DNA of 64,000 nt. Origin: a virus. Shown one piece after another: positions 57,382-63,760 of this stretch. Both the position numbers and the translations under genes were made by a program. The stretch is taken from the IMG/VR virus record IMGVR_UViG_3300024346_000009; one strand, given 5' to 3'. How positions within the stretch are numbered: position 1 is the stretch's first letter; every line of letters begins with the position of its first letter. The notes below the pieces were generated by a model. That model saw only the letters and a list, made by a program, of their open reading frames with translations. It was not told the origin of the DNA and did no database searches.

Positions 57382-57805
57382 GCTATTAAAGTTAACCAAT
57401 GGAGATAATTTAATTGTCTCTACCGAAGACAACTGTTTGGATCTGCACGAGAAGAAGTACATTACTATTACAGATCCTGTAGAGATTACTAGTATGCGAT
57501 TCCCTCATGGCAATATGGTTGTTGAGACTTTTGTTATGTCTAAGTGGATAAAGATGGCAACGGATAGTGCAATGCAAATCCCCGTAGCAAGTATCTTGAT
57601 TGCAGTAGACGTAATTGAAAAAGCCGATACGCAGTACAAAGAGTTTTTGTTAGAGTATGTTAAAAGAGATAATGAATTAGAGAATGCAGATATAGAAGTA
57701 CCCGATACGGGGGTTGAATTAGAGAAGTTTTATAAAATGTTAGCGAATTCCGAGGAGGAAGAAGATGATAGTCGGCCAAGTAGTGGAACGCAAACCGTCC
57801 ACTGA
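57371..57805 (+). CDS. Conserved hypothetical protein (Sm-like N-terminus) between uvsW and gp55
   Basis: LKL.NG...I, ..P..I, W pattern; conserved position. Confidence 0.55.
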   Translation: MYSKLLKLTNGDNLIVSTEDNCLDLHEKKYITITDPVEITSMRFPHGNMVVETFVMSKWIKMATDSAMQIPVASILIAVDVIEKADTQYKEFLLEYVKRDNELENADIEVPDTGVELEKFYKMLANSEEEEDDSRPSSGTQTVH

Positions 57806-58343
57806 AAAAAAAGCACCAGCACATTACGTTGATAATAAAAAATTCTATGAAGCTTTAGTCGAGCATCGTCGAGGTATAGATGAGGCAAAAGTAAAAGGTG
57901 TTGAGCCTCCTCGTGTGAGTGAGTATATTGGAGAGTGCTTTCTTAAGATTGCCACCCACCTATCGTACAAAGCCAACTTCATTAACTATACCTATAAGGA
58001 TGATATGATATCCGATGGTATTGAGAACTGTCTTACTGCTGTTGCAAAATTTGATCCAGCTCGCGGTACAAATCCTTTCGCATACTACACCCAGATTACA
58101 TTCTTTGCCTTTGTACGCAGAATACAAAAAGAAAAGAAACAGCAAGCAACCAAATACAAGTTACTTGAAAATGTAGATATTGATATGATACTGTCCCAAT
58201 CAGAGGGGAACGAAGAGTTTGCAAACAGCCTGGTTGAGATGATACGTAAACAAGTAGACATGATTGATATCGATCGCCGTACAGTACCTAAGGCTAAAAA
58301 GAAAAAGGTAAAAGAAGACGAAGGTACTCTTGACATAGAGTAG
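57765..58343 (+). CDS. gp55: Late-transcription sigma factor gp55
   Basis: HYVDNK.F, YIGECF.KIA..LS...NF.NY...DMI.DG.ENC, NPFAY.TQI...AF.RRI.KEK. Confidence 0.96.
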   Translation: MIVGQVVERKPSTEKKAPAHYVDNKKFYEALVEHRRGIDEAKVKGVEPPRVSEYIGECFLKIATHLSYKANFINYTYKDDMISDGIENCLTAVAKFDPARGTNPFAYYTQITFFAFVRRIQKEKKQQATKYKLLENVDIDMILSQSEGNEEFANSLVEMIRKQVDMIDIDRRTVPKAKKKKVKEDEGTLDIE

Positions 58344-58358
58344 AAAGTAGTATATAAT
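58330..58358 (+). promoter_or_regulatory. Consensus sigma70 promoter
   Basis: TTGACA-17 nt-TATAAT. Confidence 0.85.
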
Positions 58359-58363
58359 AGGGC

Positions 58364-58678
58364 ATGCCTACAAAAGTATACTATTATATTAAAGATAAAG
58401 AAGGATACGCCTCTGAGGATAAGACCTATCATAGCATCCCAGAAGATGAGGACGGCCTTTTCTTGTGGCAGCACATTAATAAGGCTCGCAAGCAGGCTGG
58501 GGTCCCCCGTGAACGTTTCTTTATAATTAATACCTCTTGTTCTCCCCGTAAGAAGTCAACTTGGATTAATCCCGACTGGCCTCCTGCACCCTTTCCTAAA
58601 CTGAAAAAAACTAGACTGGCCTTCGGTAGATATGTTATCGAGAAACCACCAGAACCAGTTGATCCAGACTTTGACTAG
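58364..58678 (+). CDS. Hypothetical protein
   Basis: ORF directly behind a consensus promoter; no family recognised. Confidence 0.55.
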   Translation: MPTKVYYYIKDKEGYASEDKTYHSIPEDEDGLFLWQHINKARKQAGVPRERFFIINTSCSPRKKSTWINPDWPPAPFPKLKKTRLAFGRYVIEKPPEPVDPDFD

Positions 58679-58688
58679 CCTATATAAT
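58659..58688 (+). promoter_or_regulatory. Sigma70-type promoter of the deazaguanine operon
   Basis: TTGATC-18 nt-TATAAT, same TATATAAT core as the other promoters. Confidence 0.65.
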
Positions 58689-58692
58689 GTAC

Positions 58693-58748
58693 AGTGCCAT
58701 CCCACTTAAACTATGTAGCTGTCCTTCCAGCTATCCAATAACTAGGAG
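58693..58748 (+). ncRNA. Candidate tandem mini-pseudoknot leader (preQ1-riboswitch-like)
   Basis: Two hairpins with 6-nt loops, each followed by AACT and a triplet complementary to its loop; the second pairs with the SD. Confidence 0.45.
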
Positions 58749-58753
58749 TATAA

Positions 58754-58924
58754 ATGTTCAAATTTGATCTACATCCAGATCCCGCTTGGCATGCTCGTAT
58801 CAGCTTTGTAAAAAGCGGACTTCGGGTAATTGCCGGTCTCTTCCTTATTTCCAGTAGCTTACTTGGCGCTGGTATCTTTTTAATCCTTGCTGAAATCCTT
58901 GGCGTTGCAGAGGAGCTTGTCTAA
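58754..58924 (+). CDS. 56-aa membrane protein absent from the ORF track
   Basis: SD AGGAG; MFKFDLHPDPAWHARISFVKSGLRVIAGLFLISSSLLGAGIFLILAEILGVAEELV; stop overlaps queE ATG (TAATG). Confidence 0.75.
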   Translation: MFKFDLHPDPAWHARISFVKSGLRVIAGLFLISSSLLGAGIFLILAEILGVAEELV

Positions 58925-59772
58925 TGGCTAAACTTAAAGTAGCAGAGTTGTTTTATTCTATTCAAGGAGAGGGTAGATTTATGGGAGTACCGTCTGTATT
59001 CCTACGAGTCTTCGGGTGTAACTTTACGTGCGGTGGGTTTGGTATGCCCAAGGGCGAGGAAAGTAAGGAGCGGGATTATGCAGCAGCTGAAGTTAAAAAG
59101 TATCTATCTTATAAAGATCTTCCTCTTGTCAGTACAGGCTGTGATAGCTATGCTTCTTGGGATCCTCGGTTTAAGCATCTTAGCCCTGTACTCGATACTA
59201 ATAGTATTACCTATTCAATTATGGATATACTACCGCACAAGAGGTGGGAAGACGAACATCTTGTAATTACAGGTGGTGAGCCTTTGCTAGGATGGCAGCG
59301 CGCTTACCCCGATCTATTGGATCATGATAGTAATAAGAGATTAAAAGAGTTAACGTTTGAGACAAATGGTACACAGGATCTAACCAGTGAGTTCCGTAAG
59401 TACTTAAATGATAACTGGACAAAGACCCGTAAGGATCAACTCACCTTCTCCGTATCACCTAAGCTATCAGTGTCTGGTGAAAAGAAAGAAGAGGCAATTC
59501 TTCCTGATATTGTTACTATGTATGAATGGTTTGGATATACGTATCTTAAGTTCGTAGTAGCTACTCAGGAGGATGCGGATGAGGCAGAGGAAGCTGTAAA
59601 TGCATATCGTAAGAGTGGATTTAATGGGCCAGTATACCTGATGCCGCTTGGTGGGGTAGAGTCTGTCTACTCTCTTAATAATCGACGGGTTGCGGAGCTA
59701 GCAATGAAGAAGGGTTGGAGATATTCTGATCGTCTACAGGTACCGCTTTTTAAAAACGAATGGGGAACATAA
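58924..59772 (+). CDS. queE: 7-carboxy-7-deazaguanine synthase (radical SAM)
   Basis: ELFYSIQGEG, FLR.FGCN..C...CDS (long insert before third Cys), ITGGEPL, ETNGT, SVSPKL. Confidence 0.9.
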   Translation: MAKLKVAELFYSIQGEGRFMGVPSVFLRVFGCNFTCGGFGMPKGEESKERDYAAAEVKKYLSYKDLPLVSTGCDSYASWDPRFKHLSPVLDTNSITYSIMDILPHKRWEDEHLVITGGEPLLGWQRAYPDLLDHDSNKRLKELTFETNGTQDLTSEFRKYLNDNWTKTRKDQLTFSVSPKLSVSGEKKEEAILPDIVTMYEWFGYTYLKFVVATQEDADEAEEAVNAYRKSGFNGPVYLMPLGGVESVYSLNNRRVAELAMKKGWRYSDRLQVPLFKNEWGT

Positions 59773-59775
59773 AAA

Positions 59776-60453
59776 ATGAGTTTAACTAAAACTAAAACTG
59801 ATGCCGAACTAGGCTATAAGGTTGAGGAATATCTAAAATCTAAAGGTGTTCATACACCTATCGTTATTGATAAGCTTCTTGTAAAAGAAGATGCTAAGAT
59901 CAAACGTATTGAGAAGCACTTTGGCGCTATCATGGACATCCTCGGGCTTGACCGAGAGGATGATTCATTAATGGATACTCCAAAGAGGGTAGCTAAAATG
60001 TATGTAAATGAAATCTTCTGGGGCTTGAAACCAGAGAACTTTCCAAAGTGTACTGTCATCGATAATAAGATGGGGTACGATGAGATGGTAATCGAGAAGG
60101 ACATTACATTGATGTCTAACTGTGAGCACCACTTTGTTACTATCGACGCTAAAGCCCACATTGCTTATATTCCTAAGGATAAGGTATTAGGTCTATCGAA
60201 AATGAATCGTATTGTAGAGTACTTTGCCCGTCGCCCTCAGGTACAGGAACGTATTGCCGAGCAAATCTACCATGCGCTCAGTTTTATTCTCGATACCGAA
60301 GATGTGGCAGTTGTAATCGAGGGAGTTCATTACTGCGTAAAATCGAGAGGGGTTGAAGATCATAACTCCTATACCATGACTGCAAAGCTCGGTGGATGTT
60401 TTAAAAGTGAGCCCGATTGCCGTGCAGAGTTTATGTCTCTAATTAAGAATTAA
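59776..60453 (+). CDS. folE: GTP cyclohydrolase I
   Basis: TPKRVAKM, CEHHF, GLSK.NR.V..F.RRPQVQER, H.CV..RGV. Confidence 0.96.
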   Translation: MSLTKTKTDAELGYKVEEYLKSKGVHTPIVIDKLLVKEDAKIKRIEKHFGAIMDILGLDREDDSLMDTPKRVAKMYVNEIFWGLKPENFPKCTVIDNKMGYDEMVIEKDITLMSNCEHHFVTIDAKAHIAYIPKDKVLGLSKMNRIVEYFARRPQVQERIAEQIYHALSFILDTEDVAVVIEGVHYCVKSRGVEDHNSYTMTAKLGGCFKSEPDCRAEFMSLIKN

Positions 60454-60456
60454 ATT

Positions 60457-60891
60457 ATGACCTGGTATGCAAACTCTGAAGGCCGGTATGGGGCTAGTGG
60501 AGCCAAGGGTGACCTTGGTGAAGCAATCGTACAAGATTATTGCAAGACTAATAACATATTATTTGAAGATAAGAATGATATTAACAGTCAAGTAAATCTT
60601 AAAATAGATTGTATCATTGATGGCATTCCTGTAGATGTTAAGTCAAACTACTCCAGGGGTACCCTCTGTATAGAGCTGTATACCAAAAGAAGAGGGGCGG
60701 GGTGGTTCTATACTACTTCTGCTGAACAAATTTACGGGGTAGATGTGGATACTAAAGCGATTTACCGCTATAATATAGAGGAAATGCTAGCTTACATAAT
60801 TGCGAATAAAACCCGCGCAAAGAGAACCGAGAAGGGTGATGTTCTTATGTGGGTACCTGTTACAACCGATATTATTGAGAAACTCCAATGA
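60457..60891 (+). CDS. PD-(D/E)XK nuclease-like protein
   Basis: G..GE helix, ID, VDVK, then .IE. and GW motifs. Confidence 0.6.
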   Translation: MTWYANSEGRYGASGAKGDLGEAIVQDYCKTNNILFEDKNDINSQVNLKIDCIIDGIPVDVKSNYSRGTLCIELYTKRRGAGWFYTTSAEQIYGVDVDTKAIYRYNIEEMLAYIIANKTRAKRTEKGDVLMWVPVTTDIIEKLQ

Positions 60892-61769
60892 AAATTAGCC
60901 ATGAATCCCCGCTTTCTCTTCTTCGTACTTCTCGTACTTACAACGACTATGATTACGCTCTTGTCCACTTGTTCGACACTGAACCCGCGTACTACAAATT
61001 CTTTAAAGAGTCTTTAGCAATAGGTAGAAAGGTTTTGCTTGACAATTCTATCTTTGAACTAGGTACAGCATTTGATCCAGAAAAATATGCGCATTATATT
61101 AGAACTCTTAAACCGACAGAGTATATTATTCCTGACGTGCTTGAGAATACTATTGGTACAATGGATAGTGCTCTTGACTTTGTAGAAAAGTATCCCGATC
61201 TACCAGGAAAGAGGATAGGAGTTGTTCAGGGTAAATCATACTCAGATCTTGTTGAGTGTTATGAATATATGGATAATATTATCGATGTAGATAAGATCGC
61301 TATATCATTTGACTACTCTTATTATCTCCAGCGTTGCCCTCATCCTAATAAATGGATGGGCTACACATTGGGGCGAGCACAAACTTTAACTAGGTTATTA
61401 AAAGATGGCGTTATTAATAAAGACAAGCCGCATCACCTCCTGGGTTGCGCGCTCCCGATTGAGTTTATGTTCTACCGCGAGGGGTTTGACTGGATTGATT
61501 CGATCGATACTTCCAGCCCTGTGGTTCACGGGCTTCTCAATATTGCTTATCAGCCTGGCGGTCTGGTTAATAAACAATCAATCAAACTCGTCGATCTTCT
61601 TAACTCCGTACCCGATGCTAACCAGATGAGAATGATTAAGCACAATGTAATGATGTTCAGTACATTTGTAAGGGGAGAGCCTAAGTCACAAAAAAGCCAT
61701 ACAGATAGTAGATACGATGTAGGTCCATGGACTACTGATCAAGAAAAATATCAGCCCGCAGAAGCATGA
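60888..61769 (+). CDS. dpdA: TGT/DpdA-like deazaguanine transglycosylase (divergent TIM barrel)
   Basis: LLDNS.FE, IPDV, GVVQG, HHLLG, SIDTS motifs in TGT order; within que cluster. Confidence 0.68.
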   Translation: MKISHESPLSLLRTSRTYNDYDYALVHLFDTEPAYYKFFKESLAIGRKVLLDNSIFELGTAFDPEKYAHYIRTLKPTEYIIPDVLENTIGTMDSALDFVEKYPDLPGKRIGVVQGKSYSDLVECYEYMDNIIDVDKIAISFDYSYYLQRCPHPNKWMGYTLGRAQTLTRLLKDGVINKDKPHHLLGCALPIEFMFYREGFDWIDSIDTSSPVVHGLLNIAYQPGGLVNKQSIKLVDLLNSVPDANQMRMIKHNVMMFSTFVRGEPKSQKSHTDSRYDVGPWTTDQEKYQPAEA

Positions 61770-61770
61770 T

Positions 61771-62310
61771 ATGTGGGTTGTATTTTTTAGTCAGACAGGG
61801 TCAGAGATAGTAGAGTTGTGTGAAGCACTAGGTCGTAAGCCTGATCTCATTGTTACAAATAATTTTGAGAGTAAAATTAAGTTCAACCCTGGTGTTCGTA
61901 ATTTAAGAGTACCCATCATGTCTGCCAGTCACGATGGGTTAATGAATTATTTTAAAAATCAATCTATATATAATCCTGCTAAGACTATTATCACCCTACA
62001 CGGTTACCTACGGATTATATCACCTGACATATGTGACAAGTATGAAATATACAACGGGCACCCTGCTGCCATTAATCTATACCCTGAATTAAGAGGAAAG
62101 GACCCTCAAGAAAAGGTGTGGCAAAATATGAGAAATTATCCTATAATAGGCAGTGTTGTGCATAGATGTACAGCTGTACTTGATGCAGGTGAGATCGCTG
62201 GGGTAGTTAATGTATTTAATGAATGTACGTCAGTGTATGCACTATATCAAAAATTAAAAGATACATCGCTTGAATCATGGGTAACGTTTATGAGAGGTAA
62301 GTCGGTATGA
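61771..62310 (+). CDS. PurN-like formyltransferase (candidate preQ1 formyltransferase)
   Basis: FFSQTGS, LHGYLRI, NGHPA, G.VVH......D.G.I. Confidence 0.8.
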   Translation: MWVVFFSQTGSEIVELCEALGRKPDLIVTNNFESKIKFNPGVRNLRVPIMSASHDGLMNYFKNQSIYNPAKTIITLHGYLRIISPDICDKYEIYNGHPAAINLYPELRGKDPQEKVWQNMRNYPIIGSVVHRCTAVLDAGEIAGVVNVFNECTSVYALYQKLKDTSLESWVTFMRGKSV

Positions 62311-62840
62311 AAATTGGATTGTCAGGTGCTCAATCTGTAGGCAAGACAACGTTGTTGAATGCTTTAAGATCTGAGAGAGGTCTGTTGGGATTTACCGTAT
62401 GTGATGAGGTAACTAGAAGGGTTAAGGGATACGGTCTTCCTATTAATGAGGAGGGTACCGATATTACGCAGATGCTAATTATGCAGGAGCATATTATAAA
62501 TGTATTCATGCATGATAATATTATTACCGATAGGACTGCGTTGGATGGATTAGTATATACATCGTACTTGCATCGTAAGAATAAGGTTTCGCTTGAAACG
62601 TTAATCAAGTCGCGTGCTATCTTTAATAAAGTATGGCCAATGTATAACCATGTATTTTATATTGAACCGGAGTTTGATTTAGTTGACGACGGGATACGAA
62701 GTGTTAATAAGCAGTTTAGAGATGAAATTGCAGATCTATTTGAAATGGTTATTGAGAAAGAGAAGCTATCTGTAACGCGTATTAAGGGTTCGGTAAGAGA
62801 TAGGGTAACAACGATTATTGAAATATTGGAAGGTAGATAA
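62307..62840 (+). CDS. P-loop nucleotide kinase (NadR/thymidylate-kinase-like)
   Basis: GAQSVGKTT, DR..LD...Y, DDG.R. Confidence 0.75.
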   Translation: MKIGLSGAQSVGKTTLLNALRSERGLLGFTVCDEVTRRVKGYGLPINEEGTDITQMLIMQEHIINVFMHDNIITDRTALDGLVYTSYLHRKNKVSLETLIKSRAIFNKVWPMYNHVFYIEPEFDLVDDGIRSVNKQFRDEIADLFEMVIEKEKLSVTRIKGSVRDRVTTIIEILEGR

Positions 62841-63760
62841 TGAGTAATCAAGATGAACTGAATAAAATTGTAGGCGTTCACTTAGGCAAAGCTGGTGATG
62901 GATCAGCAGTTAAACCGTATATTACCCCTGATGCAGTAGATAAGACATTACTGGTAGCTGTTCCGCGCTACCTAAATCGTACCGCTTATGATATTCAAGA
63001 GGGCGCTCTTCCCTTCCTAGGTATGGATGCCTGGAACGCATACGAGTTTTCTACTCTTACGAAGAGTGGTTTCCCTGTATCTGGTTGGCTTAAGTTTACC
63101 TATAATGCAAGTAGCCCTAATATCGTTGAATCAAAATCTGTAAAGCTCTATCTTAACTCATATAATATGGCAAGGATCATTAGATCACATAATGAGTTGT
63201 GGATGATTGAGGATCAAATTAAAGCACATCTAAGCGAGACTGTAGGTGATGATGTTCAGGTCTTTTTGCGTATCGGTGATATTGATACTGTTAGACCTAT
63301 GAATGGTGACTTCGTATCATTAGAGTCATATTGTAATGTTTCAAAGATGAATTTTGATCGTTATAATGAGAGCGCAGATATTTTAGAAGTTGTACCAAGT
63401 ATTGGCCGCTATGAGAGATGGAGATCATACTCCCTGCGATCAAATTGCCGGGTGACTAATCAGCCTGACTGGGGCGATGTGTATGTTCATATTAAAGGTG
63501 AAACATCTGTTACCCCAGAGTCCTTACTCCAATATATTGTATCAATGAGAAAAGAGAATCACTTCCATGAAGAAATTGCTGAATGCATTTATAAAAGATT
63601 GTTTGACCTTCTTAACCCTGAGGAGTTATTGGTTACCTGCTTATATACTCGTAGAGGGGGTATTGATATTAATCCTACTCGTGTTTCCAGTAGCCTTCTT
63701 TACAGCCTAGCTCCTGTTATTGATACATTTAATTTCTGTACTAAGACTGCAAGACAATGA
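62840..63760 (+). CDS. queF: NADPH-dependent preQ0 reductase QueF (bimodular type)
   Basis: D.WNAYE, VESKS.KLYLNS, SNCRVTNQPDWG, FHEE, YTRRGGIDINP.R. Confidence 0.92.
   Translation: MSNQDELNKIVGVHLGKAGDGSAVKPYITPDAVDKTLLVAVPRYLNRTAYDIQEGALPFLGMDAWNAYEFSTLTKSGFPVSGWLKFTYNASSPNIVESKSVKLYLNSYNMARIIRSHNELWMIEDQIKAHLSETVGDDVQVFLRIGDIDTVRPMNGDFVSLESYCNVSKMNFDRYNESADILEVVPSIGRYERWRSYSLRSNCRVTNQPDWGDVYVHIKGETSVTPESLLQYIVSMRKENHFHEEIAECIYKRLFDLLNPEELLVTCLYTRRGGIDINPTRVSSSLLYSLAPVIDTFNFCTKTARQ

Follow-up and report, generated by a model that had tools for sequence, protein, structure and literature searches.

The stretch of DNA analysed here, hereafter the window, is the 64,000 nucleotides of IMG/VR virus record IMGVR_UViG_3300024346_000009, and all positions refer to it. 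A tightly packed 7-deazaguanine operon lies on the + strand at 58924-63760, with genes assigned through Pfam and PHROG matches. It begins with a queE-like radical SAM gene (58924-59772, PHROG 2076) and continues on the same strand with folE (59776-60453), a 144-aa ORF, a 293-aa protein matching phrog_19058, formyltransferase-like and then P-loop kinase-like genes, and finally queF (62840-63760), which ends the operon. A DpdA/TGT-like identity for the 293-aa protein is a suggestion from an earlier, sequence-only reading of this DNA. The leader in front of this DNA-modification operon contains, within 60 bases, two copies of a tiny putative pseudoknot that covers the ribosome-binding site.

Upstream of the que region, a profile match identifies a T4 gp55-type late sigma factor gene (57765-58343). 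The T4-type late box TATAAATA has 15 + strand sites in the window, located in gaps before structural genes (for example at 257, 18812, 21913, 28005, 29354, 31474, 40984, 46051, 51338 and 53929), and overall 16 matches were counted against 9.2 expected. Late boxes before structural genes and a gp55-like late sigma factor are consistent with one another, and together they place the window in a T4-like phage.

The first cistron under the putative control is a 56-aa ORF on the + strand (58754-58924, start codon at 58754), predicted to encode a membrane mini-protein, the product of which matched no Pfam or PHROG family. The mini-protein has a conserved N-terminal part resembling PDPxWH(A/R)xISFxKS followed by a hydrophobic segment, and in many phage loci the gene that comes first behind the motif encodes a homologue. 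Because the stop codon of this ORF overlaps the queE start (58924) in the sequence TAATG, translational coupling from the ORF to queE is plausible. The other loci carrying the motif have the same gene order downstream, with genes that overlap or abut, so that coupling can extend control from the first cistron to later ones. Shared among these operons are queE, queD, folE, the 267-293-aa protein, formyltransferase, kinase, queF and queC; they specify a pathway leading from GTP through preQ0 to preQ1 (the last by way of queF), plus tailoring enzymes, and queF is present in most operons visible over sufficient length. Many of them also encode phosphoribosyltransferase-like, P-loop kinase, MazG-like and class-II amidotransferase-like proteins beside queC, a set that could serve nucleotide-level handling of the modified base. 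For clusters 7, 13 and 16, family names rest on sequence motifs and annotated neighbours.

Both units of the leader are on the + strand. Unit 1 (23 nt, 58693-58715) reads AGTG / CCATCC / CACT / TAAACT / ATG, where a 4-bp stem P1 (AGUG/CACU, 58693-58696 with 58703-58706) closes the loop CCAUCC (58697-58702), a linker ending in AACU (TAAACT) occupies 58707-58712, and the AUG at 58713-58715 forms the 3' strand of a second helix, P2, by pairing with the loop bases CAU (58698-58700). Unit 2 (33 nt, 58716-58748) reads TAGCTG / TCCTTC / CAGCTA / TCCAATAACT / AGGAG. Its P1 (UAGCUG/CAGCUA, 58716-58721 with 58728-58733) could gain a seventh, G.U pair (58715/58734), its loop is UCCUUC (58722-58727), its linker consists of UCCAAU plus AACU (TCCAATAACT, 58734-58743), and the AGG (58744-58746) of the Shine-Dalgarno sequence AGGAG (58744-58748) pairs with loop CCU (58723-58725). 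The 3' P2 strand of unit 1 abuts P1 of unit 2, so there is no linker between the units. Although unit 1 has no Shine-Dalgarno sequence within it, the whole architecture and all junction bases are kept; its outermost P1 pair is A-U in the window and C-G in relatives. The sequence-only reading had parsed both units in this way, and that parse agrees with the window base for base.

A sigma-70-like promoter (TTGATC-18-TATAAT, + strand, 58659-58688) matching 10 of 12 consensus positions precedes the units, and the promoter block GCCTATATAAT, conserved in relatives, ends 4 nt 5' of unit 1. Its sequence suggests a better fit to sigma-70 than to the T4-late type. If the -10 is read as TATAAT (58683-58688), the canonical start falls at ~58695 and would truncate the 5' P1 arm of unit 1; an alternative overlapping -10, TATATA (58681-58686), places +1 at ~58693, the first P1 base. 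At L112 and L313-L315 a perfect TATAAATA is followed by 5 nt and then P1, and a late-type reading again puts +1 on the first P1 base. In most loci no more than a few bases separate the beginning of P1 from the predicted transcription start. The covariation of the outermost pair of the 4-bp stems (C-G, A-U, G-C) argues that this pair is part of the transcript. A perfect sigma-70 consensus (TTGACA-17-TATAAT) is also found at 58330-58358, preceding a 104-aa ORF (58364-58678), and no terminator lies between this promoter and the que leader; read-through transcripts could thus carry both units intact.

Single-sequence folding of the 82-nt leader gave an MFE of -11.5 kcal/mol with z = -0.55 against shuffles, no better than chance, and the case therefore rests on comparison with other phages. 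The hairpin of unit 1 alone has an energy of -1.2 kcal/mol and that of unit 2 of -6.1 to -7.5 kcal/mol, within a range across units that runs from about -1 to -2 kcal/mol (4 bp) up to about -9 kcal/mol (8-9 bp). That the leader folds no better than its shuffles, and that the stem of unit 1 is only 4 bp long, would fit a chance pair of small functionless hairpins. The comparison refutes this, as at least 64 distinct conserved and covarying instances occupy the same genomic position in two QueE lineages, and we give the chance explanation practically no weight.

These versions of the motif, at least 64 in number, come from uncultured T4-like phages. The consensus unit consists of a 4-9 bp hairpin whose loop is fixed at 6 nt (NCCUUC), an A-rich linker that varies, AACU and AGG(AG); counted from the start of P1 to the end of P2, units are 23-37 nt long. 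Every loop has 6 nt, made up of a variable L1 base (C, U, A or G), CCU, one further base and C, and the linker L3 spans 4-20 nt, A-rich and of variable sequence. Among IMG/VR relatives with the 56-aa ORF or queE as first gene the element recurs with different stems, mostly as a single unit and sometimes in tandem. A structure-aware text scan of the fetched loci located it only in leader position before the first gene of the que operon. When a second QueE lineage was collected by protein, independently of the motif, 12 of the 16 loci having upstream DNA contained it.

A stem-agnostic pattern (CCTTCCA-N6-20-AACTAGGAG) searched against IMG/VR gave 111 matches. Approximately 56 have a stem of 4-9 bp, and all of these are located before que-operon genes, 4-8 nt from the start; approximately 55 are stemless, none with que-operon context. 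The genes behind the stem-bearing matches are queE (two lineages), queD/PTPS, flavodoxin, the 56-aa ORF and, once, a Ugd-like gene followed by queE. The sequence-only reading stood to fall if the motif were missing before other phage que genes; it is clearly not missing, as it precedes que genes in many phages.

Individual positions were then left free in separate scans. When neither the middle P2 base nor the triplet that follows was specified (GTGNCNTYCCACGTAAACT), the 23 matches in promoter context had CCU with AGG (15) or CAU with AUG (8) and no discordant combination, while six matches outside promoter context showed no complementarity. The compensatory change between loop and triplet that had been noticed between the two copies in the window is thus seen as the same complementarity in 23/23 in-context matches. 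With the last loop base fixed and no constraint on the other five or on the 5' arm (CCACGTAAACTAGGAG), all nine distinct in-context matches consisted of CGTG plus (C/G)CCTTC, and two chance matches differed. With the four bases before the Shine-Dalgarno sequence free (GTGCCCTTCCAC-N4-20-AGGAG), AACT was recovered in 61/61 distinct in-context matches, whereas 26 chance matches carry other tetramers. Two further features pointed out from the window alone, the AACT tail and the C that ends the loop, are accordingly general, the former as AACU before AGGAG in those 61 matches and the latter as an invariant base in 59/59 aligned units. Invariant unpaired bases such as the last loop C and AACU are typical of a binding pocket.

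Covariation was measured in an alignment (A1) of 59 units that were selected for stem and P2, so that the stem-agnostic and free-position scans are the real controls. The covariation score of P1 was 0.391 against 0.092 in shuffles, with 0 of 500 shuffles as high, and fell to 0.015-0.084 when the partners were slid. RNAalifold, with no structure supplied, predicted the same P1. The two loop-adjacent pairs of P1 are fixed as G-C and U-A, the third pair from the loop is GC in 45 units and CG in 12, and the fourth, which is never unpaired, is GC in 21, CG in 15, AU in 14, UA in 6 and GU in 1. Loop positions 2-4 and the triplet after AACU pair in 100% of cells, the middle pair being CG in 52 and AU in 6, although the AGG of single units is constrained anyway as a Shine-Dalgarno sequence, which limits the weight of the P2 pairing. 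An alternative P2 register, CUUC:GGAG, was rejected; it fails in unit 1 and in the tails of L005 (AGGAA), L113 (AGGUA) and L160 (AGGAU). Scaling of tail length with stem length was also dropped as evidence, the correlation being weak (rho 0.20, p 0.11).

In addition to the window, the tandem arrangement is found in nine other distinct loci (L001, L008, L011, L016, L079, L113, L197, L209 and L224), where each unit has its own P1, loop, AACU and P2. The first unit of the tandem has CCU/AGG in L113 and L209 and CAU/AUG in eight others, and the change between CCU:AGG and CAU:AUG probably traces to one event inherited by related tandems. Most loci have a single unit, and the tandem arose secondarily in the lineage to which the window belongs. 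Two separate single units ~220 nt apart, one before the 56-aa ORF and one before queE, are present in L045/L141, and L160/L164 have two separate sites ~570 nt apart, in L160 before queD and before queE. From this placement, the two-site phages appear to control individual cistrons separately instead of through a tandem.

The motif is specific to one operon. A covariance model (R1) run over the 64-kb window had unit 2 as its sole strong match (42.6 bits), with unit 1 matched partially (15.3 bits) and everything besides unit 2 at or below 16 bits. In each of three phage genomes of 156-163 kb, estimated as 91-100% complete, R1 found exactly one strong match. The sequence ACTAGGAG has a single occurrence on the + strand of the window; the motif tail is thus not the usual ribosome-binding site of this phage. 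The restriction to deazaguanine operons proposed from the window is borne out by the position of the motif before que operons and by its one strong match per genome. A general ribosome-binding site or general promoter-proximal element is ruled out by the one-per-genome R1 matches and the single ACTAGGAG. An N4-type hairpin promoter, a terminator and DNA-level readings were also discarded, there being no U tract, a fixed 6-nt loop, coupling to the Shine-Dalgarno sequence and start codon, and one occurrence per genome.

The same data bear on whether the element might act without any ligand, as a 5'-terminal hairpin that stabilises the mRNA together with a weak pseudoknot setting a fixed or temperature-dependent level of translation. 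In most loci P1 lies near the predicted start, the usual place of 5' stabiliser hairpins, the loop sequence CCUUC looks like an anti-Shine-Dalgarno sequence, and a weak 3-bp P2 could be a tuner or thermometer. Yet neither the invariant 6-nt loop nor the unpaired AACU is required of a stabiliser or tuner, which would also not be limited to one operon per 160-kb genome, and unit 1 is conserved though it masks no Shine-Dalgarno sequence. A 3-bp P2 with no extra stabilisation would also be unlikely to compete with ribosomes. We consider this explanation improbable; that unit 1 is complete while hiding no Shine-Dalgarno sequence argues for sensing rather than plain masking.

Beyond these phages the motif was sought in several collections. 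A pattern scan of 185,579 bacterial and archaeal species, with one genome per species, gave one true copy, on a phage-like contig. This contig, FZLS01000081.1 (L202/L234), is 11.6 kb long and belongs to the Rhodobacteraceae bacterium Water_Bin34 MAG; its motif and queE start are identical to those of the IMG/VR phage contigs L171/L185. By this identity it is most likely a phage contig binned into the MAG, or a hint at the host. R1 run over ~300 sampled genomes of Gamma- and Alphaproteobacteria produced no real match; a 25.8-bit match in an alphaproteobacterial genome (L235) was rejected as spurious, since it falls within coding sequence and contains a large insertion. Near and distant BLAST searches against 50,697 phage records gave nothing relevant, and no cultured phage with the motif was found in this way. 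The nearest QueE is that of Synechococcus phage BUCT-ZZ01 (47.6%), where the motif is absent. On these searches the motif is restricted to phages, having so far been found in phages only.

Sister phages (L006, L009, L013, L015, L018, L021, L024 and L028) have the CTATATAAT promoter block and a short, unstructured queE leader in which the motif is absent. The motif is therefore dispensable, and by this comparison it is gained or lost between close relatives.

The closest known relative of the motif, judging from its architecture, is the type III subtype of the preQ1-I riboswitch, for which the E. coli yhhQ leader has been studied by crystal structure and ITC (JBC 2023, PMC10622847). Type III has a short pyrimidine-rich loop with a single-nucleotide L1, a 3-nt L2 and a specificity cytidine beside P1 that is 97% conserved, a variable-length linker, four or five adenines, and a P2 of U11-A28, C10-G29 and C9-G30, with seven canonical pairs in all (PMC10622847). 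The phage motif would likewise be an H-type pseudoknot in which loop pyrimidines pair with the 3' tail as P2. In every terminal unit this P2 joins loop CCU to the AGG of the Shine-Dalgarno sequence, the last loop base is a C beside the 3' strand of P1, a G-C pair sits atop P1, and the linker after P1 varies in length and sequence. The 23-nt phage unit also has seven canonical pairs. Like type III, the motif stands before genes of preQ0/preQ1 supply (queE, queD and flavodoxin, in an operon with folE, queF and queC), and with the Shine-Dalgarno sequence within P2 the control would be translational, which for the phage motif is a proposal.

There are also clear differences. The phage loop is 6 nt (NCCUUC) and that of type III 9 nt (UUCCCUCAC in E. 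coli yhhQ); the statement made from the window that preQ1-I loops are longer is thus true, but for the type III subtype by 3 nt only. L1 is one variable base in the phage motif and U6-U7-C8 in type III, and one L2 base precedes the specificity C in place of two. An invariant AACU precedes the phage P2, whereas type III has four or five adenines (AAAA in E. coli). The phage P1 can be as short as 4 bp, and the motif is often at the very 5' end of the mRNA, is sometimes in tandem, and was found in phages only. In type III, U6, U7 and C8 form triples with A27 and A28, and A27 reads preQ1 (PMC10622847). A27, U6 and U7 hold the minor-groove edge of the ligand in E. coli, where tail adenines including A26/A27 read it (PMC10622847). 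In the phage motif U and C replace A26/A27, and A27 has no counterpart; with A27, U6 and U7 changed or missing, the phage pocket must be built differently from that of type III. The best reading of these sequences is that of a minimised variant related to type III preQ1-I, and not a member of it. An unusually small, tandem, Shine-Dalgarno-occluding pseudoknot related to preQ1-I is what the sequence-only reading had proposed, and every computationally testable part of that proposal holds.

Searches of Rfam 15, a check recommended along with that proposal, with 801 nt and 81 nt (E up to 10) gave no preQ1-I (RF00522) match, all matches obtained being chance ones on the minus strand (porB, 17 bits). 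As a control, the E. coli K-12 yhhQ leader (L227 1165-1215; 141 nt, E up to 10) was searched in the same release, and the validated type III element went undetected; Rfam negatives thus cannot exclude type III-like elements. In the reverse direction R1 did not match the E. coli yhhQ element, just as the Rfam preQ1 models did not match the phage motif.

Other small RNAs are more distant. PreQ1-I types I/II (B. subtilis queC, T. tengcongensis and C. antarcticum; RF00522) share with the motif a small H-type pseudoknot, an A-rich tail in the P1 minor groove, a specificity cytidine, a Shine-Dalgarno sequence partly in P2 and que genes downstream. Unlike the motif, they have loops of 10-13 nt with purines and a P2 of other bases, and only the first two Shine-Dalgarno bases are sequestered (PMC10622847). 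The two phage units, 23 and 33 nt long, follow one another with no linker and have orthogonal P2 helices (CAU:AUG and CCU:AGG), which sets them apart from tandem riboswitches for a single ligand class such as glycine, although in both cases two aptamers of one kind, putative ones in the phage, precede a shared expression platform. Guanidine-II (mini-ykkC) also places two very small hairpins in series over the Shine-Dalgarno sequence, but its ACGR tetraloops kiss, while the phage loops CCAUCC and UCCUUC are not mutually complementary and each has its own tail partner; the gene context differs as well, and no Rfam match was obtained. A full-text literature search found no paper linking a riboswitch to phage deazaguanine clusters, and the word 'riboswitch' is absent from the main phage 7-deazaguanine papers.

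We propose that the leader contains two serial miniature H-type pseudoknot aptamers, a pared-down relative of type III preQ1-I, which would act as a translational OFF switch for preQ1/preQ0. We put the probability of this reading at roughly 55%. The P1 hairpin would close the 6-nt loop N-CCU-U-C, the A-rich tail would run back along P1 to end in AACU, and the three bases after AACU would pair with loop positions 2-4 as P2. By analogy with type III, a 7-deazaguanine base, either preQ1 or the preQ0 from which it is made, would sit between P1 and P2, pairing with the last loop C and locking P2. In unit 2, and in the single unit of most relatives, P2 would contain the AGG of AGGAG, and bound ligand would hide the ribosome-binding site. 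Translation of the first cistron would fall and the coupled queE-folE-...-queF operon would follow, the outcome being end-product feedback on synthesis of the modified DNA base. As the operon encodes the preQ0/preQ1 route plus tailoring enzymes, feedback by preQ1/preQ0 is the natural reading. With no alternative hairpin to sequester the Shine-Dalgarno sequence, the default state would be ON. The P2 of unit 1, changed to CAU:AUG, would keep the units from cross-pairing, and its abutment on P1 of unit 2 may allow stacking and a sharper, cooperative response. Counting against this explanation are the hairpin energy of unit 1, just -1.2 kcal/mol, and the ~58695 start, which would cut its 5' arm. 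It would also be geometrically tight for one L1 nucleotide to span a 3-bp P2 and the ligand layer.

A riboswitch of the same fold might bind another ligand, such as guanine, 7-deazaguanine, CDG, a formylated or nucleotide derivative of preQ1 that the operon produces, or something unrelated. In place of the bases with which type III reads the ligand edge (A26/A27, U6/U7), the motif has the invariant C and U of its AACU tail and a variable L1, and substitutions in a pocket often alter what it binds. These operons also carry formyltransferase, kinase and phosphoribosyltransferase-like genes, which would place phage-specific derivatives in the cell. Against this, the loop-closing cytidine that gives guanine-like specificity is retained, and queF is found in most operons long enough to show it. 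Known preQ1-I RNAs also accept preQ1 and preQ0 alike. We hold a switch of ligand to be improbable. A bolder form of the idea is that the motif is a phage-restricted class of its own and, at 23 nt, the smallest natural aptamer, with an altered pocket that senses a phage-made deazaguanine other than preQ1 (for example preQ0, formyl-preQ1 or a nucleotide form) and, in this lineage, with two units stacked end to end in a cooperative rod. This we treat as speculative.

The pseudoknot could instead be the fold by which a protein recognises a translational operator, the protein being a repressor (of phage or host) or a pathway enzyme that acts on its own mRNA. T4-type phages do use RNA operators, including the gene 32 pseudoknot, and a protein might contact the bases that are invariant in loop and tail; the sequence-only reading had listed this option as well. 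No candidate RNA-binding protein co-occurs with the motif, however, and the first cistron can be queE, queD, flavodoxin or the 56-aa ORF. In unit 1, compensating substitutions affect two loop positions and one tail position while the junction bases are kept, a pattern that accords better with a small pocket at the P1/P2 junction than with a loop-reading protein. The motif also shares its P2 helix and specificity C with a proven small-molecule aptamer. An operator of this kind is doubtful, and we favour the preQ1/preQ0 aptamers.

If ligand binds, the unit, at 23-37 nt, would take the place of preQ1-I (~30-34 nt) as the smallest metabolite sensor among natural RNAs and would reveal how much of the type III fold can be dispensed with. 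RNAs of this length can be made chemically and lend themselves to ITC, NMR and crystallography, and the natural tandem with orthogonal P2 helices is a model for stacking minimal aptamers. The motif is also an annotation marker for deazaguanine operons in viral metagenomes. For the phages themselves, the proposed switch would be a virus-only riboswitch variant that controls DNA hypermodification, an anti-restriction trait, rather than tRNA modification, and by which phages would meter their own supply of modified base.
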